From: Bacteroidales bacterium
Lineage (GTDB): Bacteria > Bacteroidota > Bacteroidia > Bacteroidales > UBA1715
Length of the DNA stretch: 64,000 bases
Reading direction: 5' to 3'
NCBI GenBank assembly: GCA_045599365.1
Contig: JAZRVS010000129.1
Location: 1,684 to 65,683 of the forward strand
The position numbers and the translations under genes are program-made. Below, piece by piece: positions 4,069 through 64,000 of this stretch. The stretch's first letter is position 1; every line of letters starts with the position of its first letter. A model generated the notes under the pieces. That model was not told where the DNA came from, did no database searches, and saw only the letters and a list, made by a program, of their open reading frames with translations.

Positions 4069-4634
4069 GAAAAATATTTAATATTGAAAATGAAAACGAA
4101 AGAGAAGAGTTATTTGGTATTTTACCAGAAGATGTTGTTAAAATTGAAAGAGATTCTTTTAATAATACAATCTTTACTTACACAGACGGTTGTAAAGCAA
4201 CAAGTAACTTGTTTCAAATAAATTTTGGCAACTTGGCATTCATAACAAGACCTGTTGACCCGAAGGACTTGATTGGAAGTTTAGTTTGGTACAAAATTCA
4301 CGAGTCACAAGAGGCAAGAATTGGTTTCTTGTTAAAAGTAGTTGATGACGAAGAAAAACCTTATGTTTGTACGTCGTCTATTTCAGCACAAATTTTTCAC
4401 GATTGTTGCTGGATTAGAGCCGTAGCGAAAGACGAAATTTCAATTTATGAGCCGAAGGTTGAGGTTGCGTTACCTGAGAAAAAAGTTAATCGTAAAATAC
4501 CAGGTCGCAAAGGTAAATTCACATTGGAACAAAAAATTGAAATTGCTCGTTCAAAAAAGAGCATAAGAGAATTGATGGTTCAATATGATTGTACTGGAAA
4601 AACGATTTCAACTTATAGAAAGAAATACAGATGA
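4065..4634 (+). CDS. hypothetical protein with C-terminal HTH-like segment
   Basis: AGGAGG RBS. The C-terminus LTLEQKIEIARSKKSIRELMVQYDCTGKTISTYRKKY resembles resolvase/transposase-type HTH tails. Confidence 0.5.
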   Translation: MRKIFNIENENEREELFGILPEDVVKIERDSFNNTIFTYTDGCKATSNLFQINFGNLAFITRPVDPKDLIGSLVWYKIHESQEARIGFLLKVVDDEEKPYVCTSSISAQIFHDCCWIRAVAKDEISIYEPKVEVALPEKKVNRKIPGRKGKFTLEQKIEIARSKKSIRELMVQYDCTGKTISTYRKKYR

Positions 4635-10558: not shown

Positions 10559-10601
10559 TTGGAGCGAGATTTAATTATTTTTGAGGGCAATCTCGCTCCA
10601 A
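10559..10601 (+). other. Intergenic stem-loop TTGGAGCGAGAT-n19-ATCTCGCTCCAA
   Basis: Perfect 12-bp inverted repeat read directly. It is followed by AAGGAG and ATG 10619. Confidence 0.6.
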
Positions 10602-12481: not shown

Positions 12482-12817
12482 ATGAATTGGTTGGACGAAA
12501 TTATTGATTGGCACAAAAAGACTTTTCCGAAAGTTACTGAACAAAGTCAGTTTTTGAAAATTGGGGAAGAATTAGATGAATATGAAAAAGAAACTCCATT
12601 TTCAAATTCTTGGTACGAAGAACGAGCTGACGTTTTTATAACAACTCTTTGTTATTACGCTCGGTTTAACAAAGATGATTTGTACATAAAAACAATTCTT
12701 TCAAAATTTTGTCCTAGAACAGAAAAAGCAATTACGGCAGTTTTCAATAAATTTGAGAAATTAAAAGAAAGAGAATGGTTTTTCAATGACGAAGAATGTG
12801 TTTATAAACACAAATAA
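12482..12817 (+). CDS. MazG-like nucleotide pyrophosphohydrolase
   Basis: KIGEELDEYEKE...EERADVFITTL matches the MazG EExxE...ExxD helix pair. TTG 12470 is an alternative start. Confidence 0.6.
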   Translation: MNWLDEIIDWHKKTFPKVTEQSQFLKIGEELDEYEKETPFSNSWYEERADVFITTLCYYARFNKDDLYIKTILSKFCPRTEKAITAVFNKFEKLKEREWFFNDEECVYKHK

Positions 12818-13013
12818 AGAATTGATTTTTTATGGTTACAAATTTGAATCAATTTGTTCATATTTTGGTTTTGAGGGAAGTGTTAAAGGAAAGTTTAAAA
12901 ATGCAGTTTTAAAAGATAGAGGTTTGTATTTTTTAAAACGATATGATAAACTAGACGAGTTCAATGAGATAAAGGAGAACAAATATGATATTGAATCCAT
13001 GGAAGAAGTGTAG
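12786..13013 (+). CDS. hypothetical protein
   Basis: ORF-track ORF. It overlaps its neighbours at both ends, so boundaries are uncertain. Confidence 0.4.
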   Translation: MTKNVFINTNKELIFYGYKFESICSYFGFEGSVKGKFKNAVLKDRGLYFLKRYDKLDEFNEIKENKYDIESMEEV

Positions 13014-13158
13014 AGAGTTACAAGAGAAATGTGACATTTTGGTTGCAGAAATCTTGTGGCTCAGAAAAGAAAATTATTCATTAACCTATAAAACAAGAAG
13101 TCAATTTAAAAAAGGAAATCAAGAATGGAAGAAAAGCAAACGGTTTTTAAAGAGCTAA
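12985..13158 (+). CDS. hypothetical small protein (57 aa, below cutoff)
   Basis: AAGGAG RBS at 12972-12977. Hand translation MILNPWKKCRELQEKCDILVAEILWLRKENYSLTYKTRSQFKKGNQEWKKSKRFLKS. TAATG-coupled to the next ORF. Confidence 0.5.
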   Translation: MILNPWKKCRELQEKCDILVAEILWLRKENYSLTYKTRSQFKKGNQEWKKSKRFLKS

Positions 13159-13340
13159 TGTTTATGGCTAGAAACGAAATTGCAATGCCTGAAAAAGAAG
13201 GTGTAAAGCGAGAATATGCGATAAATCTAGCGAAGCTAATGTCAAAGAAAATTGTTTGGGGAAGTGATTTATCAAAATCGTTATTAAGAAGACAATTTTA
13301 TTTGTGTAGAAAAATGAAAGAATTAGAAAGGGAGAATTAA
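13158..13340 (+). CDS. hypothetical protein
   Basis: Track ORF 13125-13340 trimmed to ATG 13158 (MFMARNEI...), which overlaps the upstream stop. Confidence 0.45.
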   Translation: MFMARNEIAMPEKEGVKREYAINLAKLMSKKIVWGSDLSKSLLRRQFYLCRKMKELEREN

Positions 13341-13536: not shown

Positions 13537-14183
13537 ACGAATATAAAAACGAAGTTCCTATGGCACATATAGCAAAGAAAATAGGAGTTACTCCAGCCAC
13601 AATTAAAAATAGGCTTGTTAAATGGGGTGAGTTTAATTATAATAAAAAAATTACATTGAAAGAAAAGTGTTTGCGAAGCAATGTTTCTTATGGTGCTGTG
13701 CTTTCAAAATGTAAAAAATATAACTTAACACAAGAAGAAGCAATTGAAGAAGTAAAAGCTGGAATTAAAAGATATAGATTTCCTGAAAAATATAAAGAAG
13801 GAACAATGACTCGTGAATGTTATTTGGCAGGTCTTAATTATAGGTGTGTTTTGGCTAGAATGCGTAACAAAAAAGAGTCTGTTAAAGAAGCAATTGATTA
13901 TTTAAAAAAAAGAAGAGAAAGATTAGAAGCTGTACATCGTGAATGCGAGTTAAAAGGGCTAAATCACAAATATGTTTTGGCAAAAATGAATACAAAAAAT
14001 ATTTCTTTGGAAGAAGCAATTGAAGAAATGAAATATTACAAGACTATAAAACGAAGAGTTGTAAGAAAAAAAGAAAATGAAGTCAGAATGATTGAAGGTT
14101 TATCTTTGAAAGAATATGCTGAAAAGTATGGAATGAGTTTGTCTACAGCTAGATTGCATTGGAGAATTTTAAATGAGAAATGA
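13509..14183 (+). CDS. HTH protein with three internal ~45-aa repeats
   Basis: N-terminal HTH PMAHIAKKIGVTPATIKNRL. Repeats LTQEEAIEEVK / ESVKEAIDYLK / ISLEEAIEEMK, each preceded by a Y..VL.K. segment. Confidence 0.55.
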   Translation: MENEREFVINEYKNEVPMAHIAKKIGVTPATIKNRLVKWGEFNYNKKITLKEKCLRSNVSYGAVLSKCKKYNLTQEEAIEEVKAGIKRYRFPEKYKEGTMTRECYLAGLNYRCVLARMRNKKESVKEAIDYLKKRRERLEAVHRECELKGLNHKYVLAKMNTKNISLEEAIEEMKYYKTIKRRVVRKKENEVRMIEGLSLKEYAEKYGMSLSTARLHWRILNEK

Positions 14184-14189
14184 GGGATA

Positions 14190-14354
14190 AATGATTTTAG
14201 GTATTATATATTTTATAACGTTAGTGTGTGATGCGTTTGGTTTCAAACAATTTATTGAAATTGAAAACGAAAGAGCATTAGAGGATTGCATAGTTTGTGA
14301 AATTATATTTGAACTTGTGATTGCGTTACTTTTTTTATTTTATAAGATGATATA
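14190..14354 (+). CDS. small membrane protein (54 aa, below cutoff)
   Basis: GAGGGA RBS. Hand translation MILGIIYFITLVCDAFGFKQFIEIENERALEDCIVCEIIFELVIALLFLFYKMI has two hydrophobic segments. Confidence 0.5.
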
Positions 14355-14370
14355 AATGTTGGAGAGATAA

Positions 14371-14574
14371 ATGGACGCATTAGAAATGTGTGCTAGGGAC
14401 TTATGTAACGTGTTGCAAGAGTCTCAGAAATTACAAGAGGAAAATGAGCGATTACAAAATAAACTTGATATTGCTGTGAAAGCGTTAAAATTTATATCAT
14501 CGCAAAGCTATGGAAAAGATATGTATGATTGTGCAAAAGGGACATTAAAGCAGTTAGAGGAATTAGAAAAATGA
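14371..14574 (+). CDS. hypothetical protein, LQNKLDIAVKALKF motif family
   Basis: GGAGAG RBS. Shares the motif with ORFs 13342 and 14864. Confidence 0.55.
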   Translation: MDALEMCARDLCNVLQESQKLQEENERLQNKLDIAVKALKFISSQSYGKDMYDCAKGTLKQLEELEK

Positions 14575-14852
14575 AAGCGATAGAACAGTTAGAAGTTTTG
14601 AATCTTCTTAAAGAAAATGAGCGATTAACCCAACTTCAAATTGAATCACAAGAGATTATTGATAAATTGAAATTTGAAAATGAGCAATTAAAAAGATACA
14701 AAAGACGTTGCCATCGTTTGATAAAAATAATTGAAGCTATGAATGAGCGTCGTAGTGTTTTAATAGTAAGACCTGCCAGTGCTTTTACAAAAGCAAAACC
14801 AGAAATTATTAGTCCATTGAAAAAGGATTGGATAAAAAAGTGTTTTTATTAG
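14571..14852 (+). CDS. hypothetical coiled-coil protein
   Basis: ATGA-coupled at 14571-14574. ENERLTQLQIESQEIIDKLKFENEQLKRYK. Confidence 0.5.
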   Translation: MKAIEQLEVLNLLKENERLTQLQIESQEIIDKLKFENEQLKRYKRRCHRLIKIIEAMNERRSVLIVRPASAFTKAKPEIISPLKKDWIKKCFY

Positions 14853-14863
14853 AGGAGGATTAA

Positions 14864-15181
14864 ATGAAAAAAGAAGATGTTAAATACAACAATTTTATAA
14901 AGGGAGATAGAACTCCCGAAGATAAAATTTACAGTACATTATTATTAAAACCAGATGATATTACTTTTGCTTTTAACTTTTGTGATGGTGAGCAAGCAGT
15001 TTTTACAAACGATAAAGCAGGACTTAAAAGTATGCAAGATTTTTTGGATTTAATGAATAAAACTCATATCTTACAAAAGCAGTTGGAAATAGCTGTAGAT
15101 GCTTTGAAATTTTATTCAAACGACAATACAGCAGCTGTAGCACAAATAACACTTAAACAAATTGAGGAGTTGTTAAAATGA
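14864..15181 (+). CDS. hypothetical protein, LQKQLEIAVDALKF motif family
   Basis: GAGGAGG RBS. The C-terminal LKQIEELLK parallels LKQLEELEK of ORF 14371. Confidence 0.55.
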   Translation: MKKEDVKYNNFIKGDRTPEDKIYSTLLLKPDDITFAFNFCDGEQAVFTNDKAGLKSMQDFLDLMNKTHILQKQLEIAVDALKFYSNDNTAAVAQITLKQIEELLK

Positions 15182-15408
15182 GTTTGGAAGAATTGAGAAA
15201 TATAATGTCAAAGTCTTTTAAAATAAAAGAAACAGGTATTTATAAATTGGAGAATGGAAAAAAGGCTTTTGTTTCAAAAGTTTTAAAAAACAGAGATGTG
15301 TACGGAATTATTGAAGGTGAGATTACTCTTTCGACTTGGTATATAAATGGTCTTTATCTTGATAAATATAGTCCAGAGTTGAGCATCGTTTCAAAATGGA
15401 AGGGATAA
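15178..15408 (+). CDS. hypothetical protein, short member of the ETGxYK..GKKAFV...VSKW family (copy 3)
   Basis: KETGIYKLENGKKAFVSKV...SIVSKWKG matches the C-terminal halves of ORFs 4831 and 5239. Confidence 0.55.
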   Translation: MSLEELRNIMSKSFKIKETGIYKLENGKKAFVSKVLKNRDVYGIIEGEITLSTWYINGLYLDKYSPELSIVSKWKG

Positions 15409-15409
15409 A

Positions 15410-15721
15410 ATGAAAGACCACATTAAGATATACAACAAAGAGGCAATAAAATTCGCAGAAGAAACTAAATACACAAAGGCGACAATGAAAGCAGTGTATG
15501 AAGATTTAGAAAAATTAAGGAACGCCTCTGTAAAGTTTTATAATGATTATATCCATTGGTTGAATTATTACAAAGCCGACGCTCCTTATTTTGGTTGGAG
15601 TGACGATAACCCTGAATATGTTAATATGTGTGAAATGACAGAAGAAATTGAAACATTGTTTTTAAAGATGTATATTATTGCTGAAAAAGGGTTAGGTAAT
15701 GAGTTGGAGGTAAGGAAATGA
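15410..15721 (+). CDS. hypothetical protein
   Basis: Packed ORF. Confidence 0.5.
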   Translation: MKDHIKIYNKEAIKFAEETKYTKATMKAVYEDLEKLRNASVKFYNDYIHWLNYYKADAPYFGWSDDNPEYVNMCEMTEEIETLFLKMYIIAEKGLGNELEVRK

Positions 15722-15915
15722 CAAGAGAAGAATTATTGGAAAAACTAATTGAAAATGAGCGTAAGATTGAAATGATAAAATATGAAAACGGAATGTTGCT
15801 TATTGAAAATTCTGAAATTGTTGATGAATATTTTAAAATAATCCTAAGTGCCAAAATTGAACAAATGAAATCAAATTTAAAAAATGAAAATTATAAAATT
15901 ATAGTTAACGATTGA
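15718..15915 (+). CDS. hypothetical protein
   Basis: ATGA-coupled ORF. Confidence 0.5.
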   Translation: MTREELLEKLIENERKIEMIKYENGMLLIENSEIVDEYFKIILSAKIEQMKSNLKNENYKIIVND

Positions 15916-15925
15916 GGAGTTGAAA

Positions 15926-16120
15926 ATGAATGAAATGAATGATGACATTCCTGAAGATGATGACGTTTTTTCAGGTTTATTTTTATTTGTTGTTTGTATT
16001 GTAGCTGCAGCGTGTGTATTTTCTGCTGGACTCAAGGTCGGAAAAAATGACACGATAAAAGAACTGTGTCGGAAAAACAGTTATGATTTTTGTGAAACAA
16101 AATGTGGAGTTAATCAATGA
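15926..16120 (+). CDS. small single-pass membrane protein
   Basis: GAGGAG RBS. Hydrophobic segment GLFLFVVCIVAAACVFSAGL. Confidence 0.55.
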   Translation: MNEMNDDIPEDDDVFSGLFLFVVCIVAAACVFSAGLKVGKNDTIKELCRKNSYDFCETKCGVNQ

Positions 16121-16800
16121 CAATTAAATTATACAACAAAGATTGTTTGGAAGTGTTAAAAGAAATCTCCGATAAATCAATTGATTTAGTAATCACAGAC
16201 CCTCCGTACAGAACTATCTCTGGTGGACGGAATGACGATTTATCAAGAAGAAAATACAATTCACCAACTGGAATCTTGGCGAAAAATGATGGGAGAATGT
16301 TTCAACACAACGACATTTCGTTTGAAAGTTGGATTCCAGAAATTTACCGAGTTTTAAAAGATAATTCTGATTTCTATTGTATGACAAACGCTTTGAATTT
16401 ATTTAAGTTATATAATGTTTGTATAAACTCTGGATTTAAATTTCATAACTTGCTTGTCTGGGAAAAGAACAACGCAACACCTAACAAGTGGTATATGAAA
16501 AACTGTGAATACGTTTTATATTTTTACAAAGGATTTGCTAAACCGATAAACAACAAAGGAAGCAAAACCGTTCATAAATTTGATAATGTAAAAATCAAAA
16601 ATCACCCGACAGAAAAACCTTGCTCTTTGATGGAATTTTATGTTATAAATTCATCTGAAGAAGGTGCTCTGGTACTTGACCCATTTATGGGAAGTGGAAG
16701 TACTGGGTTAGCTTGCAAAAACACCAATAGAAATTTTATTGGAATTGAGTTAGACGAAATATATTTTAACATAGCAAAAGAAAGGATTGAAAATGAATAG
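16117..16800 (+). CDS. beta-class DNA methyltransferase (N6-adenine/N4-cytosine family, DPPY type)
   Basis: Motif IV VITDPPY is N-terminal and motif I [11 protein letters not shown] is C-terminal, giving the N6_N4_Mtase architecture. Confidence 0.9.
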   Translation: [227 protein letters not shown]

Positions 16801-17071
16801 AGAAAATTGTTTAGAAACAGCAAAAGCTTGTGTTACACAAGACAGACAAAATGATTATGGAAAACCAGAAAACAATTTCCAAAACATCGCTAATTTATGG
16901 AACGCTTATTTTGGAAAAGAGATTGTTAATTCAACTGACGTTTCTATTTTACTTATGCTTTTGAAAGTGGCAAGACTTAAAACAAGTCCTCACAAAGAAG
17001 ATAACTGGGTTGACATTGCAGGTTACGCAGCTTGTGGTTGCGAAATTTCAACTTTAACTATTGACAAGTAA
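16793..17071 (+). CDS. conserved phage protein (DUF6378-like, putative)
   Basis: DRQNDYGKPENNFQNIANLWNAYFG...LLMLLKVARL...EDNWVDIAGYAACG resembles the DRxxxYG..NF..IA.LW phage domain. Called from memory only. Confidence 0.5.
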   Translation: MNRENCLETAKACVTQDRQNDYGKPENNFQNIANLWNAYFGKEIVNSTDVSILLMLLKVARLKTSPHKEDNWVDIAGYAACGCEISTLTIDK

Positions 17072-17089
17072 TTTTTATTGTGATAGATT
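17061..17089 (+). promoter_or_regulatory. sigma70-type promoter
   Basis: TTGACA 17061-17066, 17-nt spacer, TGaTAGATT 17081-17089. It overlaps the stop of ORF 16793. Confidence 0.6.
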
Positions 17090-17094
17090 TGTTA

Positions 17095-17161
17095 TTGGAG
17101 CAGGAAGGCTTTTGTTTTCATAAAATTCTCCCATAAAAATCTCTCATTCTTCCTGCTCCAA
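17095..17161 (+). other. Stem-loop: 13-bp perfect inverted repeat TTGGAGCAGGAAG / CTTCCTGCTCCAA with 41-nt loop
   Basis: Read directly. It starts about 6 nt after the -10 at 17084-17089. Confidence 0.65.
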
Positions 17162-17169
17162 GATGTAAA

Positions 17170-17316
17170 ATGACAAAAGAAGAAAAAGCAAGACGAATTA
17201 TAACAAAGTTACAAATTAGATTGACAGTTGAAAAATGTCGTCCGTCAATGAGATTGATTTGCAGAAAACGTTGGGATAAGATTATGCCAATTCTGTTGAA
17301 GGAAAGACAAAAATAA
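17170..17316 (+). CDS. possible 48-aa basic sORF
   Basis: Hand translation MTKEEKARRIITKLQIRLTVEKCRPSMRLICRKRWDKIMPILLKERQK has 16 K/R in 48 residues. No convincing SD. Confidence 0.3.
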   Translation: MTKEEKARRIITKLQIRLTVEKCRPSMRLICRKRWDKIMPILLKERQK

Positions 17317-17320
17317 TTTC

Positions 17321-17349
17321 TTGACAAGTGTTTCAAAAAATTATATATT
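17321..17349 (+). promoter_or_regulatory. sigma70-type promoter of the polymerase operon
   Basis: TTGACA 17321-17326, 17-nt spacer, TATATT 17344-17349. Confidence 0.6.
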
Positions 17350-17355
17350 ATTTAC

Positions 17356-17450
17356 GATATGGTTTTTCTCAACTTTCTTCCCATATCTTAAGTGAGAGCG
17401 ATTCCCTCCTAAACCAAAATCGCTCTCACACCCACTAAAAAGTTGAGAAA
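17356..17450 (+). ncRNA. structured 5' leader (candidate cis-regulatory RNA)
   Basis: Three inverted-repeat pairs: GATATGG 17356 / CCATATC 17381; TTTCTCAACTTT 17365 / AAAGTTGAGAAA 17439; GTGAGAGCGATT 17392 / AATCGCTCTCAC 17418, whose loop is CCCTCCTAAACCAA. Confidence 0.45.
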
Positions 17451-17469
17451 TAAAGAAAGTGAGAATTAA

Positions 17470-17844
17470 ATGTTTAGCGAAGTAAAATCAAAGTTTGATA
17501 TTGCCGACATAAAACGTAAGGTATATCGGTTATCTCGTTTTCCAGCAGATGTTGGAATTCATAAAGATTGTACTATATGTGAGTTTGATTTAATCGGTGA
17601 TTATGCAATTTCTGTTGTGTTTAGGAACACAGAAGAAAAAGTCATTTCAAAAAGATTTCCTATGACAAAACTAGAAGATTTTTATGCGTTTTCAAGAAGT
17701 GTTGGTGTTACAATACAATTTGAAACGTTTGAAAGTTTTTCAAATGAAATTGAGAAAGCAAAAGAAATTTTAAAATTATTTGTTTTTGATGTTTATTGTG
17801 TTGATTGGGATATGATGGTTTTATCAAGGAGGATTAAATGCTAG
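17470..17844 (+). CDS. hypothetical protein
   Basis: First ORF after the leader. It overlaps the polymerase start. Confidence 0.55.
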   Translation: MFSEVKSKFDIADIKRKVYRLSRFPADVGIHKDCTICEFDLIGDYAISVVFRNTEEKVISKRFPMTKLEDFYAFSRSVGVTIQFETFESFSNEIEKAKEILKLFVFDVYCVDWDMMVLSRRIKC

Positions 17845-19598
17845 TATATGACTTTGAAGTATTTAAAGAAGATTGGTTAGTTGTTATTGCAGATTTAGAA
17901 AAAGAAGAAGTGACAACAATAACTAATGACGCTGACAAATTAAGAGCGTTTTATGAATTACATAAACACGATATTTGGATTGGTTTTAATTCAAGAAGTT
18001 ACGACTCGTTTATTTTAAAAGGAATTCTTTGTGGTTACAATCCGTTCAAGATTTCTCAATTCATTATTGAAGACGGAAGAAAAGGCTTTGAGTTTTCAAA
18101 GGAATTCAATCAAATAAAATTTTTAAATTATGATTGTATGACAGGGTTCTTTGGATTAAAAACTTTGGAAGCGTTTATGGGAGATATGATTAAAGAGAGT
18201 GACGTTTCGTTCTTAATTGACAGAAAATTAACTGAAGAAGAACTTGAACAAACAAAGTTTTATTGTGAACACGATGTCAGAGAAACGATTAAAGTTTTTG
18301 CCAACAGGAAAGCAGATTTTGACGCATATCTTTCTATTTTGGAAAAGTTTGATTTACCGATTGAAAATATCAGCAAAACAAAAGCACAATTATCGGCTAT
18401 TGTTTTGGGAGCTAAACGACGTGAGTGTGAAGACGAGTGGGACATTCGCTTACCAGAAACACTTAAAATTGAAAAATACACACACGTTTGCGATTGGTTT
18501 TTGAACGAAGAAAATCACAACGATAACGCAAAGTTGGAAACAGAAATTGATGGCTGTCCACACGTAGTCGCTTGGGGTGGATTACACGGTGCTTTAAATA
18601 GATTTTCTTATAAATGTGAAGATGATGAAGTGCTTGTTATGGCTGACGTTGACCAGCTTTATCCGACAATTATGATTAAATATAATTTGTTGTCACGTGC
18701 AATTACAAAGAAAGATTTGTTTCCGAAAATTTTAGCAATCAGTTTGGAATTGAAAGCAAAAGGTTTGAAAGCACAACGTCTTCCTTATAAAGAAATTTGT
18801 AATATCACTTACGGAGCTATGGGTGACAAGTACAATCCGATGTATGACCCACGAAATAAGAAACTTGTTTGTGTATTTGGTCAGTTGTTGATGATTGACT
18901 TGATTGAGAAAATTGAAGATTTCACGCAGTTAATTCAATCAAACACAGATGGTATTTTAATCAAAGTGAAGAAAGCTGATTTGCCGAGATTGAACGAAGA
19001 AATTGAAAAATGGCAAGATAGGGTAATGCTTCACATGAGTAGTGACGACTATTTGAAAGTTATTCAAAGAGATGTCAATAACTACATTGTCGTTCCGTTT
19101 GGTGAATTGTACGATAAAAAAGGAAAGCCTCGTTGGAAAGCAAAAGGGGCAGTTGTAAAACAGTTGTCAAAATTGGACTATGATTTGCCGATTGTCAACG
19201 AAGCTGTTAAAATGTGGTTTTTAAAAGGAATTCCACCTGAAAAAACGGTGTGGGATTGTGACGAACTGATTAAATTTCAAAACATTTTTAAATTAAGTTC
19301 GGCATATAAAGAAGCACGTATTGGTTGTTCTTTTAGAAAAGAGAAATCAAAAAACGTGTGGAACGAAGACGGAGAAATTTTGAAAGATAAAACTTTTCGG
19401 GTATTTGCTTCGTTAGGAGAAACAGGTGCTTTGTACAAGAAAAAGGACAACAAAAATCCAGAGAAATTTGCTAATTGTCCAGACAACTGTTTCATTGAAA
19501 ACGAATCCATAGTTGGAAAGTCTTGTTCTGAATATCCGTTGTTAGATAAAAATTGGTATGTTGAATTGGCGAATGATAGAATTAGGAAATTTGTGTAA
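17838..19598 (+). CDS. DNA polymerase, family-B-like, with 3'-5' exonuclease domain
   Basis: ExoI VYDFEV, ExoII GFNSRSYDSFIL, ExoIII YCEHDVRET. Motif A DVDQLYPTIM, motif B-like KEICNITYGAMG, motif C-like QSNTDGILI. AAGGAGG RBS. Confidence 0.85.
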   Translation: MLVYDFEVFKEDWLVVIADLEKEEVTTITNDADKLRAFYELHKHDIWIGFNSRSYDSFILKGILCGYNPFKISQFIIEDGRKGFEFSKEFNQIKFLNYDCMTGFFGLKTLEAFMGDMIKESDVSFLIDRKLTEEELEQTKFYCEHDVRETIKVFANRKADFDAYLSILEKFDLPIENISKTKAQLSAIVLGAKRRECEDEWDIRLPETLKIEKYTHVCDWFLNEENHNDNAKLETEIDGCPHVVAWGGLHGALNRFSYKCEDDEVLVMADVDQLYPTIMIKYNLLSRAITKKDLFPKILAISLELKAKGLKAQRLPYKEICNITYGAMGDKYNPMYDPRNKKLVCVFGQLLMIDLIEKIEDFTQLIQSNTDGILIKVKKADLPRLNEEIEKWQDRVMLHMSSDDYLKVIQRDVNNYIVVPFGELYDKKGKPRWKAKGAVVKQLSKLDYDLPIVNEAVKMWFLKGIPPEKTVWDCDELIKFQNIFKLSSAYKEARIGCSFRKEKSKNVWNEDGEILKDKTFRVFASLGETGALYKKKDNKNPEKFANCPDNCFIENESIVGKSCSEYPLLDKNWYVELANDRIRKFV

Positions 19599-20020
19599 TG
19601 GATAAATACGAAAAAGCAGTTTATAATTATTTTAACGAGAAATCTAAATCAAGCGTTTGTTTCAGATTTCAAGATGCATTAGACGCAAGCAAAGCTTCTG
19701 GAGTTATCGGAAAGGGACGCTTGGCGTTTATGAAAAAGAATCCAAGTGATTTGCTTGTTTGTGACAATGGAGATATGTTTTTTGCAGAGGTGAAACACAC
19801 ATCTGGAATTAAGGGAGTTACAAACTCATTGTTTGAAGAACAACGAGTCGCACGAGATAGAGTATTACAATCGAGTGGTAAATATTTTTATTTTATTTAT
19901 TCAACGAACATAAATATGTGGTACAAAGTTCCAGGTGCTTTTATCAGAGATAATCCAAATGCAAAATGGAAAGAATTGGGACAATTTTTAATTGATTATA
20001 TTCCAGCAGTTTATTTATAG
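19598..20020 (+). CDS. PD-(D/E)xK nuclease, RecU/Holliday-junction-resolvase-like
   Basis: DLLVCDNGDMFFAEVKHTSG gives a D...E-x-K core, followed by EEQRVARDRVLQSSGKYFYFIY, as in RecU/PrfA. Confidence 0.6.
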   Translation: MDKYEKAVYNYFNEKSKSSVCFRFQDALDASKASGVIGKGRLAFMKKNPSDLLVCDNGDMFFAEVKHTSGIKGVTNSLFEEQRVARDRVLQSSGKYFYFIYSTNINMWYKVPGAFIRDNPNAKWKELGQFLIDYIPAVYL

Positions 20021-20029
20021 GAGTTTAAA

Positions 20030-20275
20030 ATGAAGTTTATTTTATTTTCGGCAAGTTGGTGTTGCAAGTGTCAATCATTGAAAAGAGAATTAGAAAAACA
20101 TAGCGATATGAAAATAACAAAGTATGATGTTGACGAATGTTCAAACGAAATGCTTGACAAGTACGATGTAAATGAGTTACCATTGTTAATAGCAATTAAA
20201 AACGATAAAGAAGTTGCTCGCTATGATGAACGTGGTGGGAACTTGGACAGTTGGCTAAAGTTTATTGAGTGGTAG
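20030..20275 (+). CDS. thioredoxin-fold protein
   Basis: N-terminal beta-strand then SASWCCKCQ (WCxxC active-site position). 81 aa. Confidence 0.75.
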   Translation: MKFILFSASWCCKCQSLKRELEKHSDMKITKYDVDECSNEMLDKYDVNELPLLIAIKNDKEVARYDERGGNLDSWLKFIEW

Positions 20276-20283
20276 GAGTACAA

Positions 20284-20505
20284 ATGGAATTAAAAGAACA
20301 AATGCTTAAAATCTGTGCAACAGCAGGATTTGAGCCAACTGACAACATTGATAGAATTGTCAGATTAAAAGAACGATTTGGAATTGGGTTACGTTGTCCT
20401 TGTGATAAAGATAATCCAGCACGTTTTTGCATTAGCGAACAATGTGCAAACGATATAAAAAACGACGGTAGATGTCATTGTGGTTGCTACCGTAAAAAGA
20501 GTTAG
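20284..20505 (+). CDS. ferredoxin:thioredoxin reductase catalytic-subunit-like Cys-cluster protein
   Basis: CPCDKDNPARFCISEQCANDIKNDGRCHCGCY has the CPC...C..C...CHC pattern of FTR beta chain. AGGAG RBS before ATG 20284. Confidence 0.6.
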   Translation: MELKEQMLKICATAGFEPTDNIDRIVRLKERFGIGLRCPCDKDNPARFCISEQCANDIKNDGRCHCGCYRKKS

Positions 20506-20637
20506 GAAGGCAAATCCCCCAAATGGCTAGTCGGTGGGTCGTAAGATACAATGCTCAAGGTCTTGTCTTCCTTTGCTTATGCATATTTGCCTTAATTGTA
20601 TCAACACCGACATTTTAAAAGAAAGGAATTTAATGTT

Positions 20638-20820
20638 ATGAAAATGATAGCTATTAAAAAAGGAAACAAAACAACGTATAAGTTTGTGCCAGACGATTAT
20701 GTTGAAGAAGAAGGGGAAACAAAAGACATTCCACAACGTGATTTGACGACAACTGATTGCAACCAGTTGTATTTTGAAATGTCAAAAGAAGATTTTGAGA
20801 AAATATTTAGGAGCATTTAA
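20638..20820 (+). CDS. hypothetical small protein
   Basis: Track ORF 20596 trimmed to ATG 20638 (MKMIAIKKGN...) after AAAGGAA. TAATG-coupled to the SbcD-like gene. Confidence 0.5.
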   Translation: MKMIAIKKGNKTTYKFVPDDYVEEEGETKDIPQRDLTTTDCNQLYFEMSKEDFEKIFRSI

Positions 20821-21710
20821 TGTTAGAAAAAGTAAAGTTGATTGGGGACACGCACTTCGGAAAGGTTTTTAAAACAGGAGTGCCTTACGAAAGACGTGGC
20901 GAAATTGAAGAAAAGTTTTATGAGAAATTTGAAAAAGAGTTAAACGGTTCAGAGGAGTATGTAATTCATCTCGGAGATTTGTTTGACAACGTTGTTGTTT
21001 CTTTTGGAACTATTTTGCGAGTTTATAATCTGATTAAAAATGCAAGTAATTCAAATAAAAGATTTTATTTCATTCGTGGAAATCACGATTCGCAAAGAAA
21101 TAGTTTAGAAACGTCAGCTTTTGATATTTTGTCGGTAATGTTTTTGAACAATTTAAATGTGAATTTTGTTACAGATTATTTTTATATTTCAGATATAAAA
21201 TCACTTCTTATTGGCTGGGATTATCACAACGACAATTCGGAAAAAATTGAAGAAATAATTAAAGAAGAAAAACCAGATTTTGTTTTAGGTCACTTTGACG
21301 AAGTTTTGCCAGATTATTTATTTTCTTATACTGGAAAAGTTTATTCTGGACACATTCATAACGCACACAAATCTGGAAATACAACTTATGTTGGCAGTTT
21401 GTTGCCACTTGCTTTCGGGGAAGAAAGTGACGATTCGCTTATGATGACACTCACGTTAGACGAATTTCTTTCAAAGAGAGAAGATGAAATCAAAGACAAA
21501 CGAATTCGTGTTGTGTTAAAAGAAGGTGAAACTTTGCAAAACGTGAGAAATTGTTTGCAACTCGTTTTACAAAACGTGAAAAAAGAAGAAAATGTAAAAT
21601 TAGATGTTGAAATGGATTCTTTTGATATGCGACAACTTTTCAAAGAAGAATTGCCAGAAGAAATTTTTGAAGAAATGTATAACGAATATGTGGGGTTACT
21701 GGAATGCTAA
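20820..21710 (+). CDS. SbcD/Mre11-like nuclease (calcineurin-like phosphoesterase)
   Basis: Motifs IGDTHFG, HLGDLFD, IRGNHD, GHFD and GHIH in canonical order. Confidence 0.9.
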   Translation: MLEKVKLIGDTHFGKVFKTGVPYERRGEIEEKFYEKFEKELNGSEEYVIHLGDLFDNVVVSFGTILRVYNLIKNASNSNKRFYFIRGNHDSQRNSLETSAFDILSVMFLNNLNVNFVTDYFYISDIKSLLIGWDYHNDNSEKIEEIIKEEKPDFVLGHFDEVLPDYLFSYTGKVYSGHIHNAHKSGNTTYVGSLLPLAFGEESDDSLMMTLTLDEFLSKREDEIKDKRIRVVLKEGETLQNVRNCLQLVLQNVKKEENVKLDVEMDSFDMRQLFKEELPEEIFEEMYNEYVGLLEC

Positions 21711-63487: not shown

Positions 63488-63595
63488 CTTGGAGCTGGTG
63501 TTGGTGGCAAGTGGTGAGTGCCCAGCTCAAAATAAGCTGCTCCAAGTAGTAAGTGCCAAGTGCCCAGCTCCAAGTTCCCATACGCTTGGAGCTGG
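63488..63595. repeat. five copies of the 11-mer CTTGGAGC(T/A)G(G/C) in alternating orientation
   Basis: Forward copies at 63488-63498 and 63585-63595. Reverse copies at 63522-63528 (partial), 63536-63546 and 63564-63574. The region is locally GC-rich. Confidence 0.85.
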
Positions 63596-63741: not shown

Positions 63742-63770
63742 TTGACAATTTAAAAAAAAAGTGATATAGT
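63742..63770 (+). promoter_or_regulatory. sigma70-type promoter
   Basis: TTGACA 63742-63747, 17 nt, TGaTATAGT 63762-63770. Confidence 0.65.
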
Positions 63771-63810
63771 TAATATATCAAAAGGCAATAAAGCCTTTTG
63801 ATATATTAAC
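63769..63810. promoter_or_regulatory. 18-bp perfect palindrome (operator or leader hairpin)
   Basis: GTTAATATATCAAAAGGC-aataaa-GCCTTTTGATATATTAAC. It begins inside the -10 hexamer. Confidence 0.7.
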
Positions 63811-63837
63811 AAAAAAAAAAAAAAAAAAAAAAAAAAA
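63811..63837 (+). repeat. A27 homopolymer
   Basis: 27 consecutive A counted in the sequence, between the palindrome and the AAGGAG RBS. Confidence 0.95.
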
Positions 63838-63853
63838 CATTAAGGAGTCCAAC

Positions 63854-64000
63854 ATGACTATATACTTTATAAATAAAGAAACCATTGCAAAAATTGAAAA
63901 AACAACAAAAACCACAAGTTTTAATGCGCTTGTAACCTATGCGCTAGACTCTAAAAAAAGACTTGCTGACAACAAAGATTTTAACAACGATTTTAAAAAA
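63854..64000 (+). CDS. hypothetical protein, 3'-truncated by the window end
   Basis: AAGGAG RBS at 63842-63847, ATG at 63854. Open to the last base (MTIYFINKETIAKIEKTTKTTSFNALVTYALDSKKRLADNKDFNNDFKK...). Confidence 0.55.
   Translation, partial: MTIYFINKETIAKIEKTTKTTSFNALVTYALDSKKRLADNKDFNNDFKK

Follow-up and report, generated by a model that had tools for sequence, protein, structure and literature searches.

The segment described here (positions 17,061 to 17,469) comes from an orphan low-GC phage of about 68 kb. We analyzed a 64-kb stretch of its DNA, which we call the window. The segment separates a DUF6378 gene from ORF124 and a DNA polymerase gene, and it contains two promoter-like sequences (P1 and P2), an inverted repeat (IR1), a small open reading frame (sORF), and the 114-nt leader of the putative P2 transcript (Table 1). 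The -35 box of P1 overlaps the final codons and the stop codon of the DUF6378 gene, and P2 starts 4 nt past the stop codon of sORF.

Table 1. Features of the segment and its surroundings, in window coordinates.
Feature	Position	Strand	Description
IR1-like repeat	10559..10601	+	13-bp inverted repeat paralogous to IR1, TTGGAGCGAGATT / AATCTCGCTCCAA; between two replication-module genes
P1	17061..17089	+	putative sigma-70-type promoter; TTGACA 17061-17066, 17-nt spacer, TG-extended TAGATT 17084-17089
IR1	17095-17107 / 17149-17161	+	perfect 13-bp stem, UUGGAGCAGGAAG / CUUCCUGCUCCAA; 41-nt AU-rich loop
IR1 loop repeats	17119..17144	+	two tandem 13-nt repeats, CATAAAATTCTCC / CATAAAAATCTCT (repeat finder)
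sORF	17170..17316	+	48 codons, ATG start; 8 K and 8 R; predicted two-helix hairpin
P2	17321..17349	+	putative sigma-70-type promoter of the ORF124-polymerase operon; TTGACA 17321-17326, 17-nt spacer, TATATT 17344-17349
5'-terminal hairpin	17356-62 / 17381-87	+	7 bp, GAUAUGG / CCAUAUC; starts at predicted P2 +1; 18-nt loop with pyrimidine tract
Candidate uORF	17359..17391	+	10 codons, MVFLNFLPIS; starts 3 nt after predicted transcript start; covers pyrimidine tract
Pyrimidine tract	17365..17379	+	UUUCUCAACUUUCUU; pairs with decoy 17439-50 or SD region 17453-65
12-bp pairing	17365-76 / 17439-50	+	TTTCTCAACTTT / AAAGTTGAGAAA; perfect helix of pyrimidine tract with decoy
H3	17392-403 / 17418-29	+	12-bp stem, GTGAGAGCGATT / AATCGCTCTCAC; hairpin 17392..17429, ends 40 nt before AUG
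H3 loop	17404-17417	+	14 nt, CCCTCCTAAACCAA; C-rich (CCCUCCUAAACCAA), anti-SD-like (UCCCUCCU)
Decoy	17439..17450	+	AAAGUUGAGAAA; near-duplicate of SD segment; tract-decoy helix frees SD
Shine-Dalgarno (SD) region of ORF124	17453..17465	+	AAGAAAGUGAGAA; masked in predicted ensemble
ORF124	17470..17844	+	first gene of operon; distant homologue (25-34% identity) of a 130-136-aa protein
DNA polymerase	17838..19598	+	PHROG 1252 (E = 8.5e-140); overlaps end of ORF124 by 7 nt

The original prediction for this DNA described a hairpin-rich segment with two promoters, and most of its building blocks are present. Both promoters were found where it placed them and are credible. The 13-bp inverted repeat with its 41-nt loop was recovered exactly, including by a repeat finder, and so were the three pairings in the leader and the last hairpin's 14-nt loop with its CCUCC-type string. 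The folding z-scores of the leader and of IR1 (see below) bear out the richness in RNA structure. Perfect inverted repeats of at least 12 bp with loops of at most 60 nt occur four times in the 64 kb, and two of the four are in this segment, which is more than chance would give.

Judging by its homologues, sORF is a real conserved gene. Four other sequences encode related proteins at 45–69% identity. The closest (P0129, 69%) is on a 1418-bp Logan contig, and those at 45–53% are in the related phage loci L102 (plus strand) and L093 and L096 (minus strand in both). The gene moves: in L093 and L096 it lies elsewhere and even on the opposite strand. Since sORF is conserved, the truly non-coding DNA is limited to 98 nt (17072-17169) and 153 nt (17317-17469), and the 400-bp non-coding island that had been proposed does not hold up. 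The ORF's composition (16 lysines and arginines in 48 codons) and its lack of a good SD had been described correctly; the sequence upstream of the start codon is CUCCAAGAUGUAAAAUG. An AlphaFold model (pLDDT 72) has helices at residues 3-18 and 25-47, and searches of Pfam, PHROG, NCBIfam, and PADLOC found no match to the protein. It does not resemble a type I toxin, as it is highly basic and helical and has no hydrophobic segment. Antisense promoter-like sites near sORF are weak (9/12 consensus positions). We also considered N/nut-like antitermination, with P1, the hairpin, and the basic protein as its parts, and rejected it because there are no downstream terminators and the linkage of hairpin and sORF is lost in relatives.

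ORF124 had no match in Pfam, PHROG, or NCBIfam. In relatives, its 130-136-aa homologue always precedes the polymerase. The predicted structure of ORF124 (pLDDT 84) has the topology beta1-3, alpha, beta4-5, which is that of an OB-fold, and the top fold matches were PrgE (an SSB-like OB-fold protein), DUF669, and LEF-3, all of them weak (E of at least 1.5e-3, TM 0.35–0.5). These similarities weakly suggest that ORF124 may be an OB-fold, SSB-like protein that binds single-stranded DNA. The SD of the polymerase gene has a predicted accessibility of 0.19, the second lowest in the window.

Our searches did not find a close sequenced relative of the window's own lineage. Exact look-ups of sORF and ORF124 returned no matches, and ORF124 is a singleton when clustered at 90% identity. 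Nor were there matches to the H3 sequence in an exact search of IMG/VR, or to the ORF13x and sORF families in profile scans of IMG/VR and JGI metagenomes. Polymerases from IMG/VR and GTDB genomes were at most 50% identical and had different synteny, and the closest polymerase from GenBank phages was 46% identical. The usable relatives all came from polymerase homologues (55–65% identity) in Logan and ENA. L093-L099 and L101 retain synteny of ORF13x, the polymerase, a 140-aa gene, and the Metallophos and SMC genes. The gene content 5' of P2 is different in every lineage. At the matching spot, L101 has three promoter-terminator cassettes, and ORF-less promoter-to-terminator units are found at the locus in L093, L096, L101, and L102.

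P2 agrees with the promoter consensus at 11/12 positions and is the top promoter-like site within 14–21 kb. Across the window, there are seven TTGACA-17-TAnnnT sites with a perfect -35 box and at least 10/12 consensus positions, P1 and P2 among them. All seven are intergenic, yet intergenic gaps are few. A TTGAC[AT]-17-TAnnnN sequence lies directly 5' of the ORF124 homologue in L093/94, L096, L097, L098, L099, L101, and L102, so the position of P2 is conserved at seven loci, in 6/7 related lineages. The motif TTGACAAGT was observed 8 times versus 1.5 expected, and P1 contains it; a comparison of the seven promoter regions found nothing in common beyond TTGACAAG(T). From the sequence, it is credible that the host's RNA polymerase initiates at both P1 and P2. 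Stems start 6–7 nt after the -10 hexamers of both, that is, at the predicted start sites.

The P2 leader has a minimum free energy (MFE) of -33.5 to -34 kcal/mol, as compared to -15 +/- 3 kcal/mol for dinucleotide shuffles (z of -5.9 to -6.5, with 0/200 shuffles as stable). In both the MFE structure and the ensemble, the dominant pairing joins 17366-79 to 17453-65 with a probability of 0.9–1.0, while the loop of H3 is unpaired in all folds (probability >0.99). The SD of ORF124 would form a -9.6 kcal/mol duplex with the tail of the 16S rRNA. Its mean unpaired probability is about 0.03 (0.02–0.05); across all 88 gene starts, the mean is 0.52 and no value is lower. This masking is robust to the choice of folding window, to the use of P1-length and longer transcripts, and to temperature; we rejected an RNA thermometer because masking is the same at 30 to 42 °C. 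The competing states are predicted to be weaker: -33.5 kcal/mol with the SD masked versus -27.8 for the decoy helix, in which the SD is free (a difference of 5.7 kcal/mol), and -24.7 to -27.2 for the 5' hairpin with H3. Thus, the leader has the two features of SD-sequestering leaders: an SD that is paired in the favored predicted fold and an alternative that frees it.

The original prediction interpreted these pairings as an RNA switch. There are indeed competing states, but we recast the switch as one between an SD-masked fold and a nested SD-free fold. The nested fold that had been proposed exists as a competing state and is not the best fold, and the dominant pairing of the tract with the SD had been missed. 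Similarly, mutually exclusive pairings do exist in the leader, but the 7-bp and 12-bp pairings have no nucleotides in common: the 12-nt arm sits within the 7-bp hairpin's loop, and these helices would thus cross as a pseudoknot instead of overlapping. Two other suggestions, a transcription attenuator and a free-standing stable small RNA, conflict with the lack of terminators. No hairpin followed by a U run was found on either strand from 14000 to 21000, and there is no U tract after any of the three stems (the sequence after H3 is ACCCACUAAAAAG, and that after the outer helix is UAAAGAAAG). Because there is no terminator, the P2 transcript is expected to continue into ORF124 and the polymerase gene. 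The statement that no riboswitch class is recognizable does agree with Rfam. A search of 17061-17469 with E <= 10 gave just SNORA12, which is noise (15.4 bits versus a gathering score of 45), and nothing in the window as a whole reached the gathering threshold. The homologous spots of relatives gave no match either.

Conservation or covariation of the pairings in relatives had been suggested as a check, and it went largely against the pairings: the one element that recurs is the central hairpin with its C-rich loop, in L098/L099. The homologous hairpin is at the same place in their leader (GGUAAGAGGUU-CCCCAA-AACCUCUUACC) and differs from H3 by one compensatory change from G-C to A-U and by two symmetric pair deletions. 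This comparison is a manual pair table of two distinct sequences, which replaced a MAFFT alignment that was not structure-aware. Strong-stem hairpins with loops that start with CCC are found on the coding strand in intergenic DNA of the clade, versus 0 on the coding strand in 820 kb from distant relatives. None of the relatives we examined has the competing outer helices or the SD masking; their SD accessibility is 0.37–0.92, and five lineages have short open leaders of 13–26 nt. The operon as such can therefore do without the element, since neither the masking nor the decoy helix is conserved. A proposed homology of the window's outer helix to a stem in L093 (CUCAACUUU versus CUCAAGCUU) was rejected because the order of the arms is swapped.

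We give roughly even chances to a model in which this segment is the start junction of a phage replication operon and the P2 leader is a cis-acting element for post-transcriptional control. In the model, P1 transcribes sORF, whose mRNA would begin with a 13-bp stem-loop, and P2 is the dedicated promoter of an operon that runs from ORF124 through the DNA polymerase and a resolvase-like gene to SbcCD. Near the 5' end, the pyrimidine tract would pair with the SD region of ORF124 across the stable central hairpin. With the SD masked by the tract, translation of ORF124 would be off or low by default, and the overlapping polymerase gene, with its own poorly accessible SD, would probably be held down via translational coupling. 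The decoy may capture the tract in the SD's place, which would free the SD. The likely handle for shifting this balance would be the exposed C-rich loop together with the A-rich stretch ahead of the AUG. The most probable agent would be an autogenous repressor, a phage protein encoded in this same operon, comparable to T4 gp32 and gp43; the next possibility would be an RNase cut in the long helix. An SD that is masked by a duplex of at least 15 kcal/mol might also simply mean low constitutive translation.

Anti-SD and anti-anti-SD pairings in 5' UTRs are familiar from translational riboswitch platforms, from ermC-type attenuation, and from RNase III-activated leaders such as that of lambda N. 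The window's leader resembles these in having a tract, a decoy copy, and an SD, with SD-masked and SD-free states. In contrast to them, it has no recognizable aptamer or credible leader peptide, and the masked state is predicted to be favored by 5.7 kcal/mol.

Our best reading is that the leader would provide lineage-specific control of translation and stability for the replication operon, as the operators of T4 genes 32 and 43 do. The T4 gp32 operator has a folded 5' element, followed by over 40 nt of A/U-rich RNA that includes the ribosome binding site (RBS) (PMC535899). Similarly, in the window's leader, a folded 5' element precedes ~40 nt of A-rich RNA that contains UAAA and the RBS, and the leader may form a pseudoknot (the loop of the 7-bp hairpin pairs downstream). 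Both the T4/RB69 operator and this leader precede a gene in a replication module, for an ssDNA-binding protein in T4/RB69 and for a weakly supported OB-fold protein here. T4-type operators also diverge rapidly in sequence and are missing from some relatives (PMC535899), as is the case here. However, neither the leader nor ORF124 has sequence or protein homology to the T4 system, and the RBS region of T4 is unstructured and covered by protein, whereas the window's RBS is predicted to be masked by RNA-RNA pairing. In the gp43 operator, there is a hairpin ~40 nt before the AUG (PMC3014915), and H3 has the same spacing from the start of a replication gene. The polymerase is on the same transcript in both systems, and regulation is missing from some relatives (PMC3014915). 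On the other hand, the T4 hairpin, of 16-18 nt, has a UAAC loop and precedes the polymerase gene itself; the window's hairpin is 38 nt with a C-rich loop and precedes ORF124, and the polymerase families are unrelated.

Should the model prove correct, a low-GC, uncultured phage lineage would control the synthesis of its replication proteins post-transcriptionally; detailed knowledge of such control comes almost entirely from T4-type phages. It would also imply that leaders are invented and lost rapidly, with one promoter position and four downstream solutions across seven lineages. In this reading, the P2 leader would be an ordinary kind of phage control region and neither a recognizable riboswitch nor an attenuator. 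The segment contains no new riboswitch class and opens no long-standing question. The annotation is corrected, with a real 48-aa gene, an OB-fold-like protein before the polymerase, two promoters, and testable RNA elements.

Alternatively, the hairpins might be just elements for mRNA stability or processing, without regulatory switching. In that case, the stem-loops at the 5' ends of the P1 and P2 transcripts would shield them from 5'-end-dependent decay, and the interrupted helix of the P2 leader (a lower helix, an internal loop, and a 12-bp upper helix) would be an RNase III-type site. Stem-loops at the 5' terminus are an established stabilizer (Emory, Bouvet and Belasco 1992, as listed in PMC3997798). 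The resemblance to the stabilizers in the E. coli ompA/papA leaders (references in PMC3997798) is that the P1 and P2 transcripts have stems whose start coincides with the predicted 5' end or is no more than about 2 nt from it; the 41-nt loop of IR1 is unusually long by comparison, and the window's start sites are predictions. IR1 folds more stably than dinucleotide shuffles (z of -2.7 to -3.6) and, as it begins at the predicted +1 of P1, it would be the 5'-terminal stem-loop of the sORF mRNA. Stems begin at the predicted +1 of 3/7 strong promoters in the window (17061, 17321, and 63742) and also at that of the promoters of ORF-less transcripts in L093, L096, and L102. Furthermore, hairpins of the same type as IR1, with TTGGAGC at their ends, are found between cistrons (at 10559) and in a 3' region (at 63489). 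Even so, we think it unlikely that stability is all there is, because this would leave unexplained why the tract is complementary both to the SD and to its duplicate, and why just 1/88 SDs, that of ORF124, is fully masked. Also, typical RNase III substrates are longer than the single stems of 12–13 bp found here, and the +1 sites are predicted.

Another explanation is that the repeats act as DNA: as an operator, as a transcription-activated origin, or as recombination hot spots that shuffle gene cassettes. The ends TTGGAGC..GCTCCAA are common to IR1 and to the inverted repeats at 10559 and 63489, which makes three such repeats versus 0 expected; the repeat at 10559 also has GAGCGA..ATT in common with H3. 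Between the arms of IR1 is an AU-rich loop with two 13-nt direct repeats, and the varying genes 5' of P2, the relocation of sORF in L093 and L096, and the cassettes of L101 all fit with shuffling. Such shuffling has been proposed for the PeSLs of T4-type phages, which are promoter-stem-loop cassettes in ~100-bp repeats (PMC2839356, PMC4122927). As with PeSLs, we see strong sigma-70-type promoters and stable stem-loops before small orphan genes (P1 with IR1 and sORF; P2 with its hairpins), at a point where genes are shuffled between relatives, some of which have tandem promoter-terminator cassettes. But the window has no ~100-bp repeated cassette, its promoter regions being alike only in TTGACAAG(T); the stems of IR1 and H3 lack U runs and are not terminators; and the phage group and host type differ. 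The spacing of the TTGGAGC half-sites varies (29, 53, and 43 nt), which fits a folded strand better than a dimeric DNA-binding protein. The stems begin exactly at predicted transcript starts, pairing in the relatives' hairpins is maintained by compensatory changes, and there is no adjacent gene for a replication initiator. We consider action at the DNA level to be quite unlikely.

We also see a low chance that this clade carries an undescribed class of small structured RNAs 5' of the replication operon, either switches or trans regulators. The class would include the hairpins with C-rich, anti-SD-like loops and the ORF-less units of L093, L096, L101, and L102; competition for the RBS would time the synthesis of the SSB and the polymerase, with the window's leader as a cis-fused version. 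More specifically, the C-rich loop of H3 and a UCUCCC motif in the loop of IR1 might pair in trans with the SDs of phage or host mRNAs, as in staphylococcal regulatory RNAs, which have C-rich loops. The always-exposed loop of H3 is complementary to the RBS of the polymerase (UGGUUU..AGGAGG, 17816-17832; -15.3 kcal/mol) and to 12862-12880, its best non-self site (-21.3 kcal/mol). L098/L099 and L095 also have C-rich loops, and relatives have the ORF-less units. Because any CCUCC pairs with any strong SD, these matches are not statistically compelling, and the best site is inside a coding region. The window's lack of a terminator means that no discrete small RNA is predicted, and we judge such trans-acting RNAs very unlikely.

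A ligand-sensing riboswitch or a classical transcription or leader-peptide attenuator would account for three mutually exclusive helices, and a ribosome on the candidate uORF (17359-17391) would expose the SD, as in ermC, but this is extremely unlikely, given the empty Rfam searches, the lack of a terminator, the insensitivity of masking to temperature, a uORF that lacks an SD and is missing from L098/L099, and the lack of a conserved multi-helix core (one simple hairpin is common to one lineage).

Long-loop hairpins are also present in L093, L096, and L102. These have AGGAAG/CUUCCU in common with IR1 in a suggestive alignment, but the register differs, so we rejected homology and treated them as analogues. 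The first 14 nt of the IR1 loop repeats (CATAAAATTCTCCC) are conserved in L101. We considered if this 14-mer could be a minus-strand SD and ATG (GGGAGAATTTTATG), and rejected this because the resulting ORF in the window has only 9 codons. The copy in L101 is the sole exact match to the 14-mer, and it lies in the syntenic island, within a promoter-terminator cassette (1565-1578).

The island ahead of the DNA-polymerase operon (17061-17469) comprises two promoters (P1 and P2), a small gene that is genuine, and a leader, specific to this lineage, that is predicted to mask a Shine-Dalgarno (SD) sequence. It adds one more member to a class of phage control regions already known. The source contig (68,118 bp, G+C ~33%) comes from an orphan phage, and the window holds most of its genome; as far as about 32 kb, the genes lie on the + strand. 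All of the motifs listed in the original prediction lie where it placed them.

Coordinates of features in the window and in related phage loci (window positions where no locus is named)
Feature	Location	Remarks
N6/N4 DNA methyltransferase gene	16117-16800	upstream of DUF6378 gene
DUF6378 protein gene	16787/16793-17071	between methyltransferase gene and island
ORF124	17470-17844	next gene after island
DNA polymerase gene	17838-19598	PHROG-1252
Resolvase-like, thioredoxin-like and SbcD/SbcC-like genes		3' of polymerase gene
TTGACA-17-TAnnnT sites	210, 2136, 17061 (P1), 17321 (P2), 25991, 63742; 48839 on minus strand	
TTGGAGC..GCTCCAA inverted-repeat family	10559-10601, 17095-17161 (IR1), 63489-63545, 63564-63595	intergenic
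sORF homologues	L093 2149-2295 (-); L096 2773-2919 (-); L102 1422-1568 (+)	
ORF-less units	L093 3830-4015; L096 about 4395-4545; L102 1763-1885	promoter, 12-13-bp stem with 47-82-nt AU-rich loop from about +6, then U run/terminator
Intergenic gap	L101 1315-1770	456 nt, between methyltransferase module and ORF13x-polymerase operon
HNH/NUMOD4 homing-endonuclease-like gene	L093 4471-5001; L094 858-1388; L098 2055-2588	between ORF13x and polymerase; absent from window

The island had been described as a 400-bp non-coding one. This holds only for 17072-17169 and 17317-17469, because the 48-codon ORF between them (sORF) is a genuine gene. Using tblastn, we found full-length homologues in three related loci: on the minus strand in L093 and L096, where the gene finder had missed them, and on the plus strand in L102, within an operon and with a TTG start. 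Among 1.8 billion cluster representatives searched, one protein of 51 aa matched (69% identity), and 15 columns are invariant in an alignment of five sequences. Like its homologues in L093 and L096, sORF has no SD. Its product is predicted to form a two-helix hairpin and had no match in the family libraries searched. The gene changes place and orientation among the relatives; in L093 and L096 it lies on the strand opposite to every neighbouring gene.

A scan for near-consensus promoters found seven TTGACA-17-TAnnnT sites in the window's few intergenic gaps. An extended TTGACAAGT motif is common to four of the seven and is enriched (8 observed vs 1.5 expected). P1 and P2 are thus part of a standard repertoire of host-type promoters in this phage, and they are presumably active. 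A TTGAC[AT]-17-TAnnnN promoter also lies directly 5' of ORF13x (the 130-136-aa homologues of ORF124) in all lineages but L095. At 63742 there is a consensus promoter (TG-extended TTGACA-17-TATAGT). Its predicted +1 is overlapped by a perfect hairpin of 18 bp (63769-63810), and a 27-nt A run (63811-63837) separates this hairpin from the next gene's SD (region 63742-63855). The strong promoters at 210-260 and 2136-2190 have a common -10-region sequence (ACGAAWTGTG / TAYAAT / ..TTGTAAAAAGAAA), and the latter contains an operator-like direct repeat of ACGAATTGT.

The 114-nt P2 leader folds far more stably than shuffled sequences (-33.5/-34 vs -15 +/- 3 kcal/mol; z -5.9 to -6.5). For the 13-bp inverted repeat IR1, z is -2.7 to -3.6, and two of the four perfect inverted repeats of at least 12 bp in the 64 kb are within the island. 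In the minimum free energy (MFE) structure (-33.5 kcal/mol) and in essentially the entire ensemble, a pyrimidine tract (17366-17379) pairs with 17453-17465, enclosing the central hairpin H3 (17392-17429). Segment 17453-17465 is the ORF124 SD (AAGAAAGUGAGAA; -9.6 kcal/mol with the 16S tail). Its mean unpaired probability, 0.03, is the lowest of 88 gene starts in the window (mean 0.52), and the polymerase SD is second lowest (0.19). The predicted masking is retained in the longer P1 transcript and across 30 to 42 C; in these folds the H3 loop is unpaired with probability >0.99.

Because 17439-50 nearly duplicates 17453-65 (AAAGUUGAGAA vs AAAG-UGAGAA), the tract has two alternative partners. The nested state originally drawn, with a 12-bp helix (17365-76/17439-50) plus H3, leaves the SD free at -27.8 kcal/mol; the 5' hairpin plus H3 gives -24.7 to -27.2 kcal/mol. 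The 7-bp and 12-bp helices had been thought to share bases. Instead, the loop closed by the 7-bp helix contains the 12-nt arm, and the two helices therefore cross in a pseudoknot-like manner. The tract is also covered by a non-conserved 10-codon uORF (17359-17391) that lacks an SD.

Could these hairpins act only in mRNA stability or processing? Stems begin at the +1 predicted for each of three promoters (P1, P2, and that at 63742), and 5'-terminal stem-loops have a known stabilising effect (references in PMC3997798). We consider this unlikely for the hairpins together; for IR1, stabilisation of the 5' end may be its whole role. DNA-level roles for the repeats are less probable still. Three instances of TTGGAGC..GCTCCAA (0 expected), all intergenic, and the evident gene shuffling at the island junction, reminiscent of PeSL cassettes (PMC2839356, PMC4122927), would fit such roles, but the half-site spacing varies (29, 53, and 43 nt), the stems begin at predicted transcript starts and show compensatory changes, and there is no extended repeated cassette. 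None of these repeats is found in the relatives' loci. A further pair, CCAGCTCCAAG / CTTGGAGCTGG, lies near members of the family, and GAGCGA..ATT is common to the 10559 repeat and H3.

ORF124 is a singleton with no close relative found. In IMG/VR, GTDB genomes, and GenBank phages, the polymerases had at best <=50% identity and the gene order was different. Polymerase homologues with 55-65% identity in Logan and ENA assemblies gave the syntenic loci L093/094, L095, L096, L097, L098, and L099; L101 and L102 were reached through other ORF13x proteins. All of these loci have an ORF124 homologue (~31% identity) directly 5' of the polymerase, with an HNH insertion in some.

None of the relatives has a masked SD (accessibility 0.37-0.92). 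Leaders are open and 20-26 nt long in L093, L096, and L102, downstream of an ORF-less unit, and open and 13-14 nt long in L097 and L101, downstream of a terminator. L095 has no clear promoter and a 9-bp hairpin 5' of the SD. L098 and L099 have leaders of about 90 nt, in which GGUAAGAGGUU-CCCCAA-AACCUCUUACC takes the relative position that H3 has in the window. Compared with H3, this hairpin has a single compensatory change (G-C to A-U) and lacks two pairs, deleted symmetrically; the remaining pairs are all identical, and UUCCC starts both loops. Judged by this alignment, one leader hairpin, H3, is conserved in a sister lineage.

On the coding strand of the clade's intergenic DNA, loops starting with CCC on stems of at least 11 bp are those of H3, L098/99, and L095 (1973-2017), and 820 kb from distant relatives has none on that strand. 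It is doubtful that these represent a family of regulatory RNAs with C-rich loops, specific to the clade and heading the replication operon. The L095 hairpin (12 bp, GAUGGAAGAAGU / ACUUCUUCCAUC; 21-nt C-rich loop, CCCUCCCCCCCCUCAAAACUA; then a U-rich tract) lies at the junction of a 247-aa gene and a 5'-3' exonuclease gene, as does the window's 10559 repeat. We think it quite improbable that H3 belongs to a trans-acting anti-SD RNA: its loop's best complementarities are to 12862-12880 (10 + 7 bp, -21.3 kcal/mol; inside a 75-aa ORF, 12786-13013) and to the polymerase ribosome-binding site (RBS) at 17816-17832 (UGGUUU..AGGAGG, -15.3 kcal/mol), but statistically these matches do not convince, and the predictions give no discrete small RNA.

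A riboswitch or transcription attenuator is unlikely, to the point that we give it almost no weight, because Rfam has no match even at E <= 10, we looked for an intrinsic terminator and none is present, there is no tRNA, and the leaders of the related loci have no conserved multi-helix core. The original observation is real, and its interpretation was partly right.

We propose that the SD-masking leader, on P2 transcripts and on read-through from P1 or farther upstream, would hold the ORF124 RBS closed. Opening would require displacement of the tract, either onto the decoy at 17439-50, by cleavage, or by a bound factor. The polymerase gene has a poorly accessible SD and a start that overlaps the stop of ORF124; its output would therefore track translation of ORF124. 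By analogy and not membership, the nearest well-studied cases are two T4 operators. In that of gene 32, which SSB binds cooperatively, a folded 5' element is followed by >40 nt of UAAA-rich RNA including the RBS (PMC535899); that of gene 43 has a hairpin about 40 nt 5' of the AUG (PMC3014915). Similarly, H3 ends 40 nt 5' of the ORF124 AUG, and the A-rich stretch between them contains UAAA three times.

The AlphaFold model of ORF124, from an alignment of eight family members, has OB-fold topology (beta1-beta2-beta3-alpha-alpha-beta4-beta5; pLDDT 84). The best structural neighbour is PrgE, an OB-fold SSB-like protein of pCF10 (PMC11137577), followed by phage DUF669 proteins, baculovirus LEF-3, and other OB folds; all are weak matches. 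Given this model, an ssDNA-binding role is plausible for ORF124, whose gene is fixed 5' of the polymerase in the clade, and it may be an unrecognised SSB.

The architecture nearest to the window's is the L101 gap, in which four TTGACA promoters and three intrinsic terminators, two of them nearly identical (CCCTGACTTCGGTCGGGG), form three ORF-less 50-100-nt units. One of these cassettes has a 14-mer, CATAAAATTCTCCC, in common with the IR1 loop. In the ORF-less units of L093, L096, and L102, pairing of the stem is kept via two compensatory positions among the three sequences. The -35 box of these units overlaps the upstream gene's stop codon. In the same three loci, a 66-73-aa gene adjoins the ORF13x promoter region on its upstream side; its homologue in the window lies elsewhere (71-aa ORF, 13125-13340; 36% identity, E 1e-7).
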